A DNA stretch of 64,000 nucleotides. Origin: Perna viridis (taxonomy: Eukaryota). How positions within the stretch are numbered: the first letter of the stretch is position 1; the number at the start of each line of letters is the position of its first letter. The position numbers were made by a program, and so were the translations under genes. The notes below the pieces were generated by a model, which worked only from the letters and a program-made list of their open reading frames with translations, did no database searches and was not told the DNA's origin. Shown here piece by piece: positions 3,249 through 12,891 of this stretch. Location: the NCBI GenBank assembly GCA_037379345.1, contig CM074520.1:2294001-2358000 (forward strand). The letters run 5' to 3'.

Positions 3249-4561
3249 TGTGGCGGATACCGTCTTTAATTTGCATTCATTTTTAATAAATAACTTCAAA
3301 AGAGGTTTCCAAGATCATTATACCTTATATTTGAGTGATATTTGGGTTTAATTTGGTCTTTTGTCTCTTTTACTTTGTGCCCCGTGCAGGTCCGGGTGTT
3401 AAAAGAATAGGTCTGCAACAGCGCTAAGCTTGTCGTAAAACCTGACCGCAAACCATAGTGGTGCACCGTGTTGGGAAAGATGCCACGTTCCTCGCATGTT
3501 AAAGAACCCTACTGTGGTATTCTCCCGGAGTAGGAACCATAGGGCTCCGCCACAGGAGGCTAAAGTGCCCAACCCTACCCACCTCTCCCTATTTCCAGTG
3601 GCAATCAAAATTTGTCGACCCCATTGTCCTTGTGTCCCATCCCCTTTTCATTTCATCATCATTTCATGTTCATTTTATCATTAATTTCATGTTCATCGTC
3701 TGAATATAGCTGAAATATTGCTGCTCGGACGTTAAACCTCAACAAACAAACAAACAAAACTTTTACTTCGTTAGGCCCTTTATGGTTGTCCGCGAACTAA
3801 TTAAGTTCAGAATGAAGATTTACCCTCGGGTTTTTAGTATTGGGTGCGTTCATGGTTAATGCATGAGTACTATTCTCATTTTAGGGTAGAGCAATTTTAT
3901 TTAAATTTTTATTTGAATACTTTTCATAAATGTATTAAACAAGTTATTTGGATATTCCTTTTATGGAAGTGAACTTTGTTTAACCTTTTTTCAGTAGTAT
4001 ATAAGCTCGTGAGATTCTCACTTAAGGGCTTTTTCCTCACAAGAGCCAGTAGTGTCTGTACAAGACTAAGGTAGATTCCTTTAGCAGGACGTTGTGCTAC
4101 CTTGCAGTTGTAGCCAGTACCGATCATCGATTGTGTATTTTTGGCTCTTGCGTACCTTTCCAATATTTGGCATTTTTCTAAATTAGTAGGATCTTCCACG
4201 TCTGGTCTTGTTTCGGTAATTTGACTTAACTTTAATTAGGAATGTAGGTTTTTTTTTAAATGTAGATTTTATGAGCAGGGTTTTATTAGTGAGTTATTCG
4301 CATAGATTGATCCATTAAACTATGTTAAACTTTGTAACTTATTAAATAATTGTCACTTACTATATAACAAATACACTGTTGTTAATATTTAGACATTTTT
4401 TACCTATTAAATATGTAAAACTTTCTTGCCTTTTACTTCGTAAACCAGGAGGAGACAGAAACTCAGGTCCCTGTGTTCGAACCGGAATAAAAATGCTATT
4501 GATTGAAAATAAGACTGAACAACTACATTGTAACATCTAAAATTCACTAGCTCCGGTTACA
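3249..4561 (+). repeat. 5' LTR (TG...CA), containing a SINE insertion
   Basis: Starts TGTGGCGG, ends CCGGTTACA just before the PBS; first ~155 bp (excluding the SINE) match 12738-12891 with ~8 substitutions and one 2-bp indel. Confidence 0.88.
3376..3759 (+). mobile_element. SINE-like retroposon (Meta-core-like) inserted in the 5' LTR
   Basis: Absent from the 3' LTR; 9-bp TSD CTTTTACTT (3367-3375 and 3760-3768); GCATGTTAAAGAACCC core-like motif; tail TAGCTGAAATATTGCT...CGTTAAAC followed by (CAAA)n. Confidence 0.8.
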
Positions 4562-4564
4562 ATT

Positions 4565-4580
4565 TGGTGGCCAGTGTGGG
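4565..4580 (+). promoter_or_regulatory. Primer binding site, probably tRNA-Ile(AAU)
   Basis: TGGTGGCCAGTGTGGG a few nt after the LTR end; close to the complement of the tRNA-Ile 3' end (TGGTGGCCAGTACGGG). Confidence 0.75.
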
Positions 4581-4673
4581 AACCTGTTGTGAAAAATCTG
4601 CCACCTCTTGTTTATTTTTTTTAGTTTACAAGTTTAACATTGAATATTAAATTAAATTAATACGGATAGTAAA

Positions 4674-7150
4674 ATGGCCCAAGGACAGGACCTAGAAAAC
4701 TTTAAAAGAACTTTTCAGCAGGCAATGAGTCAGTTACAAGTCCAAATAGATAATATACCAACAGTTAAGGATGAAAATTATCAGTCAGATCTATCTTTAT
4801 TTAGCCCGTTAGGCACGCAAACTAGAATTTCAAACTTTGAAGAAGAATTTGATCAAGTTGAACCGAGCCGTATGTTTGAGGTAAGGTCAAATGCATTTCA
4901 TAAAGACGATGAAAACGAGGATGATTCAGAATCGGAATTACCAGGATACTCCACAGTCTTGTATTACACAAGCCATAGCACACCGTCTGGGGATGCGAGT
5001 GACAGTTGATGATTATACCAACAGTAGTGCCACACCCCAAGTTACACCGCATGAATCACAGTTTAGCAATCGTATATTAGCTTCCTCTATGCGATCACCG
5101 GTACAACACAAATCCATAATTAGTTCATCCAAAAGTCATATATCAAACGCGGCGAAAGTCTCAACTGCAGTAGGTACACTAAAACAAGTAAGCTTCAATT
5201 ACAGGAAACCACCGTTAGCTAAACGTGAATGTGAACCTGATACATTTGACGGGAAAACTATAGATTAGCAAGATTACATTGTTCACTTTGAACAAGTTAC
5301 GGATTGGACAGGTTGGAATCCACGAGAATGTGCACAAATGTTATGTATGAGTTTACGTGGAACCGCACAGAAGTTACTAGGGGATGCGGAGCCAGAGGTT
5401 CTAGGCAACTATTTGTTATTGACCGATATGTTAAGCCGACGGTTCCCGCCAAAGGAACGAATTACCGCTTATCAGTGCGAATTCAACTCACGAACAATCC
5501 TGAAGAGTCTGTAAACTCTCTCATCTTACAGTTGTGTGATATATATACTAACAATAGCTTCAAATAAATCAAAACCAAATATAAAAGCCATAAAGCGACG
5601 GAAACAAAAACGCTCTTGGTCACCTGTCATCAAACAGGCATGTCAAGAGAATAAGTTATACTTCTGGATATGGAAGGAGAATGGTAGACCAGTGGACCCA
5701 TATAATGAACACTTTAAACTCATGAAAGAAGCCAAAAAGAACCTCCGTAAATTACAACGTCAGTACGAGGCAAGTAAAAGGAGATCAACATATGAAAATA
5801 TTATGGCAGCTCATGAGGGAGATCAAACTATCTTGTACAAACTCATAGGCGAGCAGAGAAAAGATGGAAATAGGGGAACTACCTACCTCACTGTAAATGA
5901 CCAAAATCTTACAACTAATGATGAGATTTGTGAGGGGTGGGCAGAATATTTCAAAGATCTAGCTACGCCAAATAGCTCCGATTGCTCCGATGATTCATAC
6001 AACCCCCGAGTCGAACTTGATCGTCTACTACTGGAAGATATATGTAAAAATAATAAAGATATCACACCAATATTTCTGGAATCTGAGGTGCAAGATATAA
6101 TCTCCTCAATGAAAAATCGCAAGTCCCCAGATAGTCTAGGAGTAATGACAGAACATTTTAAGTATGGCGGATATAAATTACTGGCGTTCTTAACAAAACT
6201 GATAAATCAAATCTTTGACAAAGGTCTGGTACCAGATCAGTTTCGAACTGGAACTGTGACACCTGTATTCAAGAATAAGGGGAAACCGTTACATGATCCT
6301 AATAGTTATCGCAAGATCACAGTAGATAGTATTGCTGGTATACTGGTGGAGAAACTACATCTCAATTTATTAACAGCTAAGATTGTCTTTGAACAATCTA
6401 AACTCCAACGTGGTTTCACAAATGGTGTATCACCATCTAGGGCGGCATTAATAGTAACAGAGCTCAGAGCAGAGGCAAGAGATAATCGATCTCCCGTATT
6501 TTTTTGATTCCTAGATGCGGCCAAGGCCTTCGACAAAGTCTGGCATGGATCAATGCTAAAAAAATGATTTTCCTCGACTGGGGAAACAGGGTATATAGCT
6601 TGGATGGTTGGCTGAGTCTCACCAGGGACTAGAGTTACCGTCTAGTATATTGTAGTTATATTATAAATTTTACCGAACCCAAACTATAGATAGGGATTTA
6701 TGCAGATCCGTTGGATATAAGCACCGGATCTGCAGTTCTCCAGAAAGTGGAGAAATATACGTAACAACAACAACAGGAGGCAGAACGTATCATTAGCTGA
6801 TTACGGTTACGCATTGAGGCGTTTAGTTAAATTAGCGTATCCTGATGTAGATAAAACTGAAGACTCAGCCATAGATCAATTCATTAATGGATTGAATGAT
6901 TTTGAAGTTCAGAAAAGGGTGCAATTTTCACATCCAAAAAACGTTAGAACGTGCTATCGCTGTAGCAATTGAGTATGACGCTATTCCTCCTTTTTATACA
7001 AAATACAAAAGATATGGTCATCATATAGAGGGATGTACAACACCAATCTGTTTTAAGTGCAAAAAAATGGTCATATGTCTAGATTTTGTAAACAGAATAC
7101 AAATAGTCAAATAGGAGACATGAAAACTCAGATGCTGGTCATAATTTTAA
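4674..7150 (+). pseudogene. gag: Gypsy gag, frameshifted and split by a LINE insertion
   Basis: EPDTFDGKTID*QDYIVHFEQV; CAQMLCMSLRGTAQKLL; RFPPKERITAYQCEFNSR, resuming after the LINE as RRQNVSLADYGYALRRLVKLAYPD; frameshifted CCHC knuckle CFKCKK-GHMSRFC ~7047-7090. Confidence 0.85.
5494..6775 (+). mobile_element. Non-LTR retrotransposon (LINE, RTE-X-like) fragment, 5'-truncated and internally deleted
   Basis: ORF 5536-6507 with WSPVIKQA..FWIWKENGRP, KSPDSLGV, PVFKNKGKP..DPNSYRKIT, LQRGF; then FLDAAKAFDKVWH after a frameshift; 3' UTR stem-loop TGCAGATCCG/CGGATCTGCA (6701-6734) and (AAC)n tail. Confidence 0.88.
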
Positions 7151-7712
7151 TAACAACAGCCTGCGTTCAGGGCCAGAGACACAGGCTCTTTAAATGATAG
7201 GCCCACTGTTGACATAAATCCTATAAAAAAAAACGGGCTTTTTGCTCCTGCTAAAATGGGACATCAGAAATTCAATCTTTTAATAGATACTGGTTCTATT
7301 GTTAGTTGTATTTCAAAATCAAAACTTGATGAAATGGCAACATGGAGAAATGTTCAAAACTGTTCAACTTCTTTAGTTAGTGCAGGTTGTTTAGACCTTT
7401 GAGTTCGTGGCAAAGATTTTGTTATTCATGATATCCCATTTAAACAAGATTTTGTAGTAATTTTAGGGATAGATTTTCTGGAGGCAAACCAAGCATTAGT
7501 AAATGTTTATAAAGCTTTACTAGTTATGCCAGATATGAGCACAATAAAGTTGAATAAACTTAAAAATTCACACTGTGCACTGATCAGACTAAAGGATAGG
7601 CTAGTGTTACCTGCAAATACAGAGTCATTGGTTCAAATTAAAATTCCTAAAAATGTTATGAGCGACGATATGATAGTTGAGCCAAATGTCACCCTTACAA
7701 AACAAGGTGTAC

Positions 7713-7827
7713 TGATTTATTTACTTTATGTTCTTTGTTGTGTATGTCTGTTTTCCATGTCTGGTCTTTGTCCCTGGATTATATTCTTTTGATTACCGCT
7801 ATAACCTTGATTCCCTTGATTACTCTT
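7713..7827 (+). mobile_element. Short Penelope-like 3' tail inserted in pol
   Basis: Interrupts KQGVLI|SSTL; related sequence at 16720-16950(-) and 59776-59941(-). Confidence 0.7.
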
Positions 7828-7928
7828 TCAAGTACTTTAGGTAATACTAAGAGTAGGGAAGTTATTATTTCTGCAATAAATTGTAGGGATTTTGATTTAA
7901 GAAAGAACAAAGTTGTAGGGAGTATTCA

Positions 7929-8317
7929 GAAATGATCTCAGACCCAGTAGAGATAAAGCAAACAGTACTAACTTCTGAAATGATCTCTGACCCAGTAGAG
8001 GTAAAGCAAACAGTACTAACTTCTGAAATGATCTCAGACCCAGTAGAGATAAAGCAAACAGTACTAACTTCTGAAATGATCTCTGACCAGTAGAGGTAAA
8101 GCAAACAGTACTAACTTATGAAATGATCTCAGACCCAGTAGAGGTAAAGCAAACAGTACTAACTTCTGAAATGATCTCTGACCCAGTAGAGGTAAAGCAA
8201 ACAGTACTAACTTCTGAAATGATCTCAGACCCAGTAGAGGTAAAGCAAACAGTACTAACTTCTGAAATGATCTCAGACCCAGTAGCGATAAAGCAAACAG
8301 TACTAACTTCTGAAATG
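7929..8317 (+). repeat. 48-bp tandem repeat x8 inside pol (EMISDPVEVKQTVLTS)
   Basis: Unit GAAATGATCTCAGACCCAGTAGAGGTAAAGCAAACAGTACTAACTTCT; the 4th copy lacks 1 nt. Confidence 0.95.
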
Positions 8318-11300
8318 CCAGAACATTTATAATGTTTAACGGATAAGATCTCTGATAAACTTACTGAGAGTCAAAAAGAAGAAATTGAGGAACTGGTCAT
8401 TAAATTTCAAGATATTTTGTTAGGTCCAGATGGGAAGTTAGGCAGAACAGACCTAGTGAAGCATACTATTGACACAGGCAATACCAAACCAATAAAAAAT
8501 ACCCCCTATAAGAACTCCAATAAAATTGAGGGAGGTTATTGATCAGGAAGTTGATAATATGCTACAACAGGGAGTAATTGAACCTAGTAGTAGTCCCTGG
8601 AGTGCCCCTGTCATCCTATGTCTTAAAAAGGATAAAACTTGGAGATTTTGCATTGATTATCGCCTTCTTAATGCTGCTACTTTAAAAGATTCATACCCCC
8701 TCCCAAAAATTGATACTTCTCTTGATTCATTAGGAGGTAAGTGGTTCAGTACCATTGATTTAGCATCTGGTTATTGGCAGGTTATGGTAGATGAAAAGGA
8801 CAGGCCCAAAACAGCTTTTGCATGTCAAAAAGGTTTATACCAGTTTAGGGTGATGCCATTCGGGTTGTGCAATGCTCCTAGCAGTTTTGAAAGATTAATG
8901 GATATAGTATTAAAGGGTTACCAATGGGAAAGGTGTTTATATTACCTGGATGATGTGATAATTTTTGGTCCAACTTTTGAGAAAGCTATGGAAAATTTGG
9001 AACTTGTATTTGATAGGTTTAGGGGTGCAAATTTAAAGTTAAAACCCCAAAAGTGTTTCCTTTTTCAACACCAAGTTCTTTATTTAGGTCATGTTGTGTC
9101 AGATGAAGGAATCAGTTGTAATCCTGATAACGTTAAGGCTCCAAGTGAATGGCCTGCTCCTAGAAATGTAAATGAGGTCCGGAGTTATCTTGGCTTAGCT
9201 GGTTACTACCGTCGCTTTATTCAATTTTTCAGAAGTTGCCTCTCCTTTGACAAATTTAACTAAACAGGTGTGAAGTTTGCATGGGATGAAAGTTGTCAAA
9301 ATGCATTTGTTCATTTGAAGGAAAAACTTACTTCAGCTCCCGACCTCAGTTATCCAATGGGTGAGGGTCAGTTTATTTTAGATACTGATGCTAGTGGACA
9401 TGCTATAGTTGCAGTCATATCACAAGTTCAAGGGTCAGAGGAAAAAGTAATTGCTTATGTTAGTCGCATGTTAACCGAGTCTCAGATGAAGTATTGTACA
9501 ACTCATAGAGAACTTTCGGCTGTGGTTATATTTGTAAAATATTTTTGCCTTTATTTGTTTGGTCGTCAGTTCAAAATACGTACAGATCACGCTTCTTTCA
9601 TTTGGTTAAAAAGATTTAAACAGCCTGAAGGAATGGTTGCTCGATGGATTTCTGTTCTAGATACTTATGATTATTTAATAGAGCATAGGAAGGGTAGTCA
9701 ACATACAAATGCAGATGTATTATCTCGAAAACCCTATAGGTAATGCAAAAGGAAAGATTGTCCTGGCTGTGATAAGGTTGATGGTAGTTTAACTTTGGAA
9801 AATGGTGACGGTAATGTCATAGCTCCTTTAAGGTTTGAAGGTCTGTCTTGATAACACCATTCCTTATGAGGAAGAGGAAGGTGCAGCAGAGAATAATATT
9901 GATTTACCACAAATGTCTAATTGGTTGAGAATTTGGTCAAATGGAGACATTTTAAGCTGGCAAGAAAATAATCCTGATACAGCTAAAGTTGTCGAAATGT
10001 TGAATCAATATGATCAAAAACCAGAGAGAGATATTGTGACAGGTAGTAGTTAGGAACCTTTGGAGTACTTGGGAGTCATTAACCCTAGTGAATGGTATTC
10101 TTTATCTCAAGTATTATCAAGGTGAAAATGAAAGTCTTTTTTTTTAGTTCTACTCAAGGAGATTCGTAGTCAATTCATGTTATTGCAGGTCATTTAGGTA
10201 GGGATCATACAATAAAAGCAATTAAACATAGATTTTATTGGCCTGGTATGACATCTGATATCAGTGCATGGGTTCGAGAATGTTCAGTTTGTGCCCGAGC
10301 TAAGCCTGGTCCAGGAGTAGGCAGATTTCCACTTCAGCAGTCCTCAGTAGGATGTCCTTTTGATAGGATAGGTGTAGACATAGTAGGCCCAATTCCTGTA
10401 ACAGAATACAGGAATGAATATTTGATTGTAGTACAAGACTACTTAACCAAATGGGTTGAAGCTTTTGCTGTCCCAAATCATAATGCATTAACAGAAGCTG
10501 ACAAATTAGTTACAGAAATACTTTGTAGATTTGGTATGCCTAGTCAAATTCATAGTGATCAGGGTAGGATATTTGAGTCTGAACTGTTTAAATCTGTGTG
10601 TGATATATTGGGAATTGATAAAACTAGAACTGCCCCTTACCGCCCACAAAGCGATGGCCTTGTGGAGAGATTCAATCAAACTTTACAGAGGATGTTATCA
10701 ATGTTTGTCAATAAATTTAGAAATAACTTGGATGACCTGTTAACTTTTGTATTAATGGCAAACAGAGCCACAGAAAATGACTCTACTGGAATAAGTCCTC
10801 ATAAAATGTTAACATGTAGGGAAATGTCTTATCCTCTTGACATTATGGTAGGAAACCCTAAAGATAAAGAAGTTTGTTGTCCCATAGAATATGTTCAATC
10901 GATAGGTTATTCTTTTGAGAAAATGTTCAATTTTGTAAGGCAGAATTTAGCTGCAAATAGACAGAAAAAGAACTATGATAGGTGTATTAAACCTAGACAA
11001 TGGCTATGGTATCCACCAACAGCTGGTATTAAGTTAGGTTTAGGATGGAGAGGTCCCTATAAAGTTTTAACTAAACTTACTGAAGTTACTTACAGAGTAC
11101 AAGAAGTTCCAAATTCTAGGCCCATAGTGCTTCATGTAGATCATCTAAAGCCATATCTAGGTTCAGTTCCAGAAGCTTGGCGTCAGCCTGCAATAGAGGA
11201 TTCAGAGTCAGATGAAACTGACATAGAACCACCTGTCTTTGATAACTTTTTCCATTCATCTTTTTCTGATAATAGTGCTCATCTTGATGATGAACCTATT

Positions 11301-11967
11301 CCTCATACACCTACCCAAAACAGAACTAGATGTGGAAGAGTTGTTAGAAAGCCTACTAAATATTCACCTTGTATATAGCTTTATGTGTTATATAAATATA
11401 TTTACGCTTAGTACAAATGTACCTAAATTAGGTACTCAAATCATATACATGAGTATAGTTTGAATGGTATGGTAAAATGGTAAACAGTTGGTAAGGAAGT
11501 AATGAGTTGATTTCATAATTGATATGTATTCCTTTAATTGAGTAAATTAGTGGGAGAAGTTAGAATTTATTCTATAGAGGGGTTTAATATTTATTCAGAT
11601 CCTACATGTACAGTGTATACAAATATCAAGCATTATCATAGATATTAAGTAGTTTGTTGATATGACAAAATACTACTGATAAGAATATTATATGATCACT
11701 TCGTAGACCTATTTAAAACTCTCAGTGAGAATCAGAAGAGTTTGTATACTTGATTTGATATGTTTTCTTTATCTCAAAAAAAAAAAAGATTGTCCTTAAA
11801 ACCTGACAAGAAACGTGTTGAAATATTTCCGGTACTATTGTCTTTACTTAATACAAAGTATGTCACCCACATACCTATATCTTTGATATTTACAAAATGT
11901 ATGCTTGACTATATGCACATTGTGAATACCCAGAGTATTTTCTTTACTTACCCTGTTATTTTACAGT

Positions 11968-12636
11968 ATGTCTGATAGACCAGTTTTCACAGATAATTAC
12001 ATGTGCCCTGTGGCAGACTGTGGGAAAGGACATTTCCATGCCTATCGTCAGTATCAGAGGCACTGGCACAGGCATCATGTGAGACAATGTTTGAATGTTT
12101 GGGTTGTCCAGAACGGTTCTGTAGATCAAGTGAGGGAAATTTTCATCTTGTTAGGCGCCATAATTTCACACACAATCATGCATCTCAGGCGCGTAGCTGC
12201 CGTTAGGCAAAAAAGCTTTTGCCTGCACTTAATTTTGTCATTTTTTTAATAGATAAAATACATCCAGGAGAGGCATAAATGATGCTCTAAAACGCTATCT
12301 CCGCGGAGCTTGGGGGGGGGGGGCTTCGCCTCCTGTATCCCCTGCCGTAATTTTGCCTACACTTCAATTTGGCCTCAGCTACGCGCCTGCGTCTTCAGCA
12401 GTGGTGTTAATGAAGGGAATGATGGTGGATAATCCGTGGTATATCAATTCGTTGGAATGTCTCCCTCCTAGAAAAAAGGAGAAACTGTGGAGGTACGAGA
12501 AGACATTGTGGAGGTTATTGAACAAGAGTATTTACCAGTGGGAGCGTCTGTACATCGAGACATGGATTATAACTTAGTATACAGAAAAGGAAAGATTGTC
12601 ATGAAATTGATACATAAAGATGACTTTGATATATAA
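11968..12636 (+). pseudogene. Third Gypsy ORF: two-C2H2 zinc-finger protein (~153 aa reconstructed), disrupted by two 1-nt frameshifts and a MITE
   Basis: CPVADC-x13-HWHRHH and CLGC-PERF-x8-HLVRRH; splice acceptor TTACTTACCCTGTTATTTTACAG directly before tATG; removing the MITE restores the frame. Confidence 0.7.
12186..12389. mobile_element. MITE inserted in Gypsy ORF3
   Basis: 14-bp TIRs CAGGCGCGTAGCTG / CAGCTACGCGCCTG; imperfect 5-bp TSD CATCT/CGTCT. Confidence 0.85.
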
Positions 12637-12726
12637 TTATGTTTTATTTGTTCATTTGTTTATTGAGTTTCATGTATTTGTTTTATGTAGACCATTTTCA
12701 ATATTTTGTTATTTTTTAATGGTCTA

Positions 12727-12737
12727 GGTAGTGGGAA
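12727..12737 (+). promoter_or_regulatory. Polypurine tract
   Basis: GGTAGTGGGAA immediately before the 3' LTR. Confidence 0.6.
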
Positions 12738-12891
12738 TGTGGCGGATAGCGTCTTTAATTTGCATTCATTTTTAATAAATAACTTCAACAGAGGTTTCCA
12801 AAATCATTATATCTTATGTTTGAGTGATATTTGGGTTTAATTTGGTCTTTTGTCTCTTACTTCGTTAGGTCCATTATGGTTGTCCGTGAAC
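12738..12891 (+). repeat. 3' LTR, truncated
   Basis: ~95% identical to the start of the 5' LTR; similarity stops at 12891, where the MULE-like element begins. Confidence 0.9.

Follow-up and report, generated by a model that had tools for sequence, protein, structure and literature searches.

A two-finger third reading frame behind pol in a clade of Gypsy retrotransposons of Perna viridis

The reading frame and the element that carries it

What does a Gypsy retrotransposon do with a small zinc-finger protein encoded behind pol, in the place where errantiviruses carry their envelope gene, and does such a gene belong to the element at all? The question is raised by a 64,000-nucleotide stretch of Perna viridis DNA (GCA_037379345.1, contig CM074520.1, positions 2,294,001 to 2,358,000, forward strand), referred to below as the window. 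It holds a Ty3/Gypsy LTR retrotransposon from 3249 to about 12891, with both LTRs, a primer-binding site (PBS) and a polypurine tract, and with the Gypsy pol order of protease, reverse transcriptase (RT), RNase H and integrase according to Pfam, the protease match being weak (E=0.02-0.03).

3249..4561, + strand: 5' LTR (TG...CA), a two-piece match to 12738-12891, with an unrelated insertion at about 3378-3768
4565..4581, + strand: primer-binding site, by sequence comparison with sister elements
4674..7111, + strand: gag, broken, with a foreign fragment at about 5515-6720
7154..11378, + strand: pol, broken; protease, RT 8496-9263, RNase H 9264-9743, integrase 10170-11378
12726..12737, + strand: polypurine tract
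12738..12891, + strand: 3' LTR, shortened, by alignment to the 5' LTR

The other Pfam matches on pol were RVT_1 (5e-34), RT_RNaseH_2 (3e-28), rve (6e-11) and Integrase_p58_C (5e-12), and the stop codon that a sequence-only reading of the window had placed at 11378 is there. The first 11 letters of the PBS are identical in three sister elements, with one change in a fourth, and the gag pieces at 5269-5511 and 6721-6969 match sister elements at 30-55%. The two LTRs differ at 5 positions in 121 nt; since the 3' LTR is shortened, the target-site duplication of this copy is unreadable. With gag and pol broken and later insertions inside, the element is dead. The insertion at 3378-3768 in the 5' LTR is flanked by two copies of an 8-nt word, and similar sequence also interrupts L059, L073 and L126, so that it is a mobile short element. 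The piece at 5515-6720 inside gag has a 330-codon frame and no Pfam match, and is presumably a fragment of a non-LTR retrotransposon, which it resembles. A 48-nt tandem repeat, in frame, occupies 7881-8375 between protease and RT, and a second acceptor-like tract lies at 4608-4624, between the PBS and the gag ATG.

The third open reading frame (ORF3) consists of four pieces around an insertion:

11944..11966, + strand: splice acceptor (pyrimidine tract and CAG), 1 nt 5' of the ORF3 ATG
11968..12078, + strand: piece 1, start and finger 1 (43% identity to protein P0114, E=1e-11)
12081..12185, + strand: piece 2, finger 2, in a different frame (30% identity to P0114, E=8e-5)
12186..12389, no strand assigned: high-copy non-autonomous DNA transposon with 14-bp terminal inverted repeats
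12395..12472, + strand: piece 3, region of the N..Y-x-x-P strand, by position and motif
12475..12636, + strand: piece 4, C-terminal part and stop (37% identity to P0114, 36% to P0149)

The pieces were not joined; each was compared separately with open natural proteins, and the E-values of pieces 1, 2 and 4 refer to a search among 43 short proteins. P0114 (open, 164 aa) aligns to pieces 1, 2 and 4 in order and P0149 to pieces 1 and 4 (for piece 4, E=2e-5 and 5e-5, respectively), while piece 3 alone had no match at E<=0.05 among these 43 proteins. A profile built without the window matches piece 1 at E=6e-7. The acceptor stands as the sequence-only reading had described it, with its AG at 11965-66 followed by a T and the ATG at 11968. 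Piece 1 contains the motif C-x4-C-x13-H-x4-H and piece 2 the motif C-x2-C-x12-H-x4-H. Pfam finds no C2H2 family in the window pieces, so that the two C2H2 fingers proposed earlier are borne out by homologues and predicted fold and not by Pfam.

The spacer that separates the last His of finger 1 from the first Cys of finger 2 is 17 nt long in the window and exactly 8 residues long in 40 of 41 short homologues; the first break, earlier taken for a 1-nt frameshift at about 12080, is therefore probably larger than a simple 1-nt shift. The insertion had been called a MITE with a target-site duplication: the terminal inverted repeats agree with this, and the flanking duplication is 5 bp long and imperfect, with one mismatch. 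It has very high read depth in run X4. An assembled contig of the same family from another organism's run (X1), which covers piece 3, is without exactly 209 nt at the insertion site, and thus the insertion arrived later. Broken in three places, the window copy of ORF3 can, from its sequence, no longer work. We found no close copies of it besides the window itself in searches of the 723-Mb genome.

The env genes of errantiviruses, which encode membrane fusion glycoproteins with a signal peptide and a transmembrane segment, are expressed by splicing; the ORF3 protein has at most a third of an envelope's length. That it is no envelope, as had been proposed, agrees with the highest 19-residue Kyte-Doolittle mean, 0.67 over the four window pieces and 0.58 in three open homologues, with no hydrophobic segment, and with the lack of any envelope family in Pfam scans of the window pieces and homologues. 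The earlier comparison with errantivirus env thus holds for the position of a third ORF between pol and the 3' LTR, as described in passages of PMC3383448 and PMC13524379, and for nothing beyond position, since ORF3 has no hydrophobic segment and a zinc-finger fold.

Occurrence in the clade and selection

One may also consider that a single capture brought a piece of a host zinc-finger gene into the element, which has kept it since as a functionless passenger. The same module does occur in tandem in mollusc host proteins, and the few RNA reads available revealed no expression (see below). We looked at 40 of the 41 best other integrase matches in the genome (one tandem duplicate excluded; 150 matches scored of 702 candidates), reading about 5.5 kb downstream of each. 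In a tree of integrases from the Perna viridis genome only, the window and 16 others fall in one clade (support 100/99). Contrary to one outcome that the sequence-only reading had named against itself, that intact relatives lack the ORF, a profile search found the finger ORF in all 17 clade elements, downstream of pol and in sense orientation, although their integrases are only 40-58% identical to that of the window; these rows represent about seven families, not 17 independent cases. The profile was partly derived from clade loci, leaving out the window, L054 and the L041 group; four near-identical copies score 3e-3 plus 4e-2, and the other 13 score at E<1e-3. In the 24 sister-clade rows no score reached 1e-3, and no antisense match was seen in the downstream stretches.

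The ORF was to be looked for between integrase and 3' LTR, and six whole clade elements with both LTRs mapped have it there (L034, L035, L037, L039, L047 and L133), L042 and L134 agreeing with this order on shorter LTR matches. Of 23 genome matches to P0114, 21 fall in element loci already mapped, the other two being weak, which goes against a second outcome named earlier, a host gene captured in one copy. L135 and five weak genome matches were rejected as relatives, being ordinary host-type C2H2 genes. Two families have two finger ORFs in tandem; in L034-L038, L047 and L133 the pair lies 0.8-2.1 kb after integrase, each ORF with its own acceptor, and combines an acidic-start type of about 120 aa with a longer type that has a basic helix and a C-terminal hairpin motif.

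The third such outcome was an absence of purifying selection. Between families the ORF3 dN/dS was 0.15, 0.33 and 0.39 where computable, values that are rough because dS is near saturation and the protein-guided alignment favours low dN; two more pairs had saturated dS. A deficit of replacements was present in all five between-family pairs (P<=0.01), and integrase gave 0.07-0.15 in the same kind of comparison. ORF3 is thus, on these codon comparisons, under purifying selection between families. Close copies look different: in 12 pairs dN/dS ranged from 0.50 to 1.45, none significant, a point in favour of the passenger. Integrase, however, is equally near-neutral in close copies (0.47-0.78, one of four significant), as expected of decay after insertion. 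At least 24 differences from the X1 contig were listed, 8 synonymous and 16 not.

Six positions in the protein are moreover invariant, and the acceptors are conserved although the spacer has diverged. A functionless passenger is accordingly very improbable and already largely refuted. ORF3 is not a one-off host capture; it is almost certainly a real gene borne by the element and, as had been proposed, an accessory gene constrained between families.

Splicing and expression

When 7 or more pyrimidines in 10 are asked for, a YAG acceptor lies no more than 15 nt upstream of eight of nine clade ORF starts and of 223 of 2800 background ATGs (P=1.6e-8); a stricter demand of 8 leaves 4 of 9 and 91 of 2800 (P=1.4e-4). 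The count was made without L054, L125 and L128, which have acceptor-like tracts and starts that are decayed or less clear. The distance from AG to ATG varies from 0 to 14 nt, so that there is no fixed-frame fusion of ORF3 to an upstream exon.

The genome also holds a DNA record of the splice. L130 is a 1.9-kb mini-element (6968-8914, G000:C7) with both LTRs (98.9% alike), PBS and polypurine tract, which keeps 39 codons from the start of gag and has ORF3 open. Compared with its one full-length sister element, L039, it is without bases 5237-10797 of the merged stretch, and what is missing starts with GTAAGT and ends with TTTTGTAG, exactly a GT-AG intron leading from gag to ORF3. Target duplications of 4 bp flank L130, L039 and L047. 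L130 is a reverse-transcribed spliced RNA, representing one event in one family (L039/L130). Copying of this kind requires that the splice lie downstream of the PBS, so the RNA behind L130 need not be the main mRNA. Expression of ORF3 through splicing in the clade is very probable. For the window's own copy the proposed splicing is putative, by way of an acceptor homologous to the one used in this sister family and of a candidate donor that had been suggested:

4878..4888, + strand: candidate splice donor, 207 nt downstream of the gag ATG

It would cut at 4880/4881 and is placed similarly to the proven L039/L130 donor, 118 nt after the gag ATG; no other strong GT site lies within the first 500 nt of gag. 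In L130 the ORF3 ATG lies 119 nt after the gag ATG, leaving the gag AUG upstream and out of frame; the window's candidate is also out of frame with ORF3, and in neither is an N-terminus shared in frame with Gag. The gag frame ends 16 nt after the ORF3 ATG in L130 and 5 nt after it in the window with the candidate donor. Coupling of that stop to the ORF3 start was dropped as a translation route, L039 being without that stop in the 30 nt examined.

RNA coverage was very low. On the sister element L133 no junction was seen in 61 reads (10 + 30 + 21, from a fifth to a quarter of three runs). In two RNA runs aligned to window positions 8400-12736, which do not include the candidate donor, depth was almost only on the high-copy insertion, no read fell on ORF3 outside it and no junction appeared. 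No RNA dataset is listed with the window stretch. The X1 contig, which may be DNA, runs across the acceptor without a splice. No further spliced copy turned up in 18 loci from two families of the sister clade. L059:2440-2500 and L131:7650-7720, on different contigs, have a common deletion that opens early in the first ORF and closes exactly at the acceptor of the second ORF; it starts with GG, not GT, and may be a splice or a micro-homology deletion.

The finger module and its possible roles

The ORF3 proteins of the clade are 120-190 aa long, with six invariant positions in alignment A2 (His-Trp, His, Cys, His, His). The AlphaFold model of the L130 protein, a check proposed earlier, has two predicted beta-beta-alpha fingers (mean pLDDT 85, pTM 0.57), a linker strand, one more strand past finger 2 and, at the C-terminus, a helix of 29 residues. 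With Cys2His2 ligands and this predicted fold the module classes as C2H2, and in the model the linker strand may pair with the C-terminal strand and so hold the fingers together. Foldseek gave no match to the model at E<=0.001; the best rows were Tramtrack (2drp, E=0.017) and AFV1p06 (2lvh, E=0.08; TM 0.79 on the target, rmsd 1.2 A). With both, the ORF3 model shares predicted beta-beta-alpha fingers, an extra strand and Cys2His2 ligands (for AFV1p06, PMC3541406). Unlike classical C2H2 fingers, ORF3 has His-Trp-x3-His in finger 1, a fixed 8-residue linker and a conserved N..Y-x-x-P tail; the TGEKP linker occurs in 0 of 43 short proteins. Pfam C2H2 matches on open homologues are weak and, with one exception, below cut-off, and Pfam has no family of its own for the module of about 100 residues. 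The ESM Atlas returned generic C2H2 clusters only (0.76 for a short piece), which we do not count as support.

Word-index protein searches gave one match each and the full profile search far more, 12,887 proteins at E<=0.001, many of which are probably generic C2H2 arrays. Of the best 150, 27 are short proteins with a single module, two of these being all but identical to Perna viridis copies, and all named relatives are from molluscs. Mollusc host proteins hold the same module in tandem, in up to 21 copies. P0003-P0025, P0056 and P0088 are long proteins with 2-21 tandem modules, the named ones being from Sinanodonta, Gigantopelta (with a G-patch) and Haliotis (with an RRM); Pfam found an RRM in 2 and a G-patch in 1 of 14 long matches. 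In the module tree (104 columns) 37 of 63 forks are open, so that the module may have passed from host to element or the other way.

We tentatively propose, as a reading that could well prove wrong, that this small two-finger protein is a putative nuclear DNA-binding regulator that raises transcription of its own element. A donor in the leader or early gag would be joined to the acceptor just 5' of the ORF3 ATG, and the resulting short RNA would yield ORF3 protein without a Gag fusion. Its fingers would bind the LTR, or LTR chromatin, in the nucleus, and transcription or chromatin factors of the host would be recruited by way of the second ORF or, in some members, of the acidic N-terminus. In the fold search the top rows are DNA-binding fingers, and 8-9 of the first 30 residues of L130 and L035a are acidic. 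The profile's PDB matches are mostly transcription-factor fingers, but any C2H2 fold would give such matches, since transcription factors supply most of the solved fingers. Two fingers read only a short DNA site. Other points also weigh against a regulator: fold matches remain above the E<=0.001 threshold, the TGEKP linker is absent, the translation route past the out-of-frame gag AUG of L130 is unexplained, dN/dS in close copies is not significantly below 1, and there are the RNA reads described above, none on the window ORF3 and 61 without a junction in a sister family.

The RRM and G-patch found beside the module in host proteins point to RNA, and thus to a different reading: a Rev- or CERV-like factor, made from the spliced RNA, that would bind a structure in the unspliced genomic RNA for export or protection, so that this RNA leaves the nucleus or is shielded from splicing and decay. 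TFIIIA, which binds DNA and RNA, is the best PDB sequence match of the profile; the missing TGEKP linker and the predicted Arg/Lys-rich C-terminal helix also suit an RNA factor, and an element with working splice sites must export intron-bearing RNA. CERV of the C. elegans element Cer1, a product of spliced mRNA, does so according to the parts of PMC10309623 consulted. However, the N-terminus of CERV is common to Gag, whereas the L130 splice is out of frame with gag, and the best fold matches bind DNA. We consider an RNA factor rather unlikely, although the evidence does little to tell it from the DNA-binding regulator.

Most of the 24 sister-clade rows have a different ORF after pol, often with Cys/His fingers first and an acceptor, and with a C-terminal end of BTB, TatD or coiled-coil type; none was seen in L053, L055 and L056. 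L046, L048-L050, L061, L069, L071 and L073 have two Cys/His fingers, a charged middle and a KCTD-type BTB, with both ends not visible in every copy; Pfam BTB_2 is significant in L049 and L069 (8e-16, 6e-12), weak in L046 and absent from L048. In L065, L068 and L070 a TatD nuclease-like domain follows pol (Pfam significant in L068 and L070, 5e-17), L070 having a finger pair in frame with integrase and L068 a PHD-like Cys motif after it. L060, L063, L064 and L066 have an ORF3 of about 260 aa behind an acceptor, with two fingers and a long coiled coil, a type of which nine copies were found. L052, L058, L067 and L072 form one more type, with a short conserved motif near the end, and L057 and L062 another; starting fingers are visible in L052, L072 and L057.

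Oligomeric regulators join fingers to BTB or coiled-coil ends, and so do these ORFs, in line with the transcriptional reading. The KCTD-type BTB is also a known cullin-3 adaptor fold, and it, like TatD, would suit a third reading, in which the paired fingers would serve to bind protein and so to block or degrade a silencing factor of the host, from the piRNA or the chromatin pathway, in the manner of a viral counter-defence. Fast divergence with fixed zinc ligands, and duplication into two different ORFs, are consistent with this. Yet the window's clade is without a BTB or enzyme domain, no partner is known, and the sister-clade fingers (0 of 24 against the clade profile) may be unrelated acquisitions; we hold a counter-defence role to be quite improbable.

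Accessory regulators are a hallmark of complex retroviruses. To our knowledge, few of those in animal LTR retrotransposons have been worked out (CERV, the MDG1-group sORFs and the rotifer ORF3s). In the parts of the sources consulted, CERV is an accessory protein from a spliced mRNA, needed for expression of its element; it is like ORF3 in being a Cys-rich, spliced accessory product (for ORF3, in the sister family) of a Gypsy-type element, and unlike it in having 517 aa, several exons, sequence shared with Gag and a possible C4 finger in a ring-forming domain (PMC10309623), where ORF3 has 120-190 aa, two C2H2-type fingers and, in L130, a start out of frame with gag. LTR elements of bdelloid rotifers also have family-specific non-env ORF3s, including a nuclease type, but these are GDSL esterases and DEDDy exonucleases, the sister-clade nuclease being TatD, and the abstract and section 3.3 of PMC5408684 mention no zinc-finger ORF3. 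The Drosophila MDG1 group has two small accessory ORFs under constraint, of which sORF1 is nuclear with a possible helix-turn-helix; unlike ORF3, they lie upstream of gag and are unspliced, and sORF2 is a membrane protein (PMC11952523, in part). By analogy, ORF3 would work like the accessory genes of Cer1, of the rotifer elements and of the MDG1 group, without belonging to any of these. The words 'ORF' and 'zinc' are absent from the main text of the mollusc LTR survey by Thomas-Bulle (2018, PMC6238403), as is 'zinc' from what was consulted of PMC13524379. No description of ORF3 appears in the titles, abstracts and passages covered (including PMC8220671 and PMC2774666), a scope outside which Repbase, GyDB, subscription journals and supplements lie.

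A whole mollusc Gypsy clade, then, keeps a spliced zinc-finger gene. Its open natural homologues, among them the Mytilus coruscus protein P0002, make it testable whether retrotransposons encode their own transcription or RNA-export factors, and a module without a Pfam family, common to elements and mollusc hosts, bears on the origin of lineage-specific zinc-finger genes. Among the small 'hypothetical C2H2 proteins' annotated in bivalves, many may be genes of such elements. It is conceivable, if on balance doubtful, that these elements form a complex-retrotransposon lineage of molluscs with its own spliced, LTR-controlling fingers, with swaps of effector (BTB, TatD, coiled coil) and with exchange of the module between element and host; if so, the finger module shared between them would have seeded the mollusc proteins that now hold up to 21 tandem copies.
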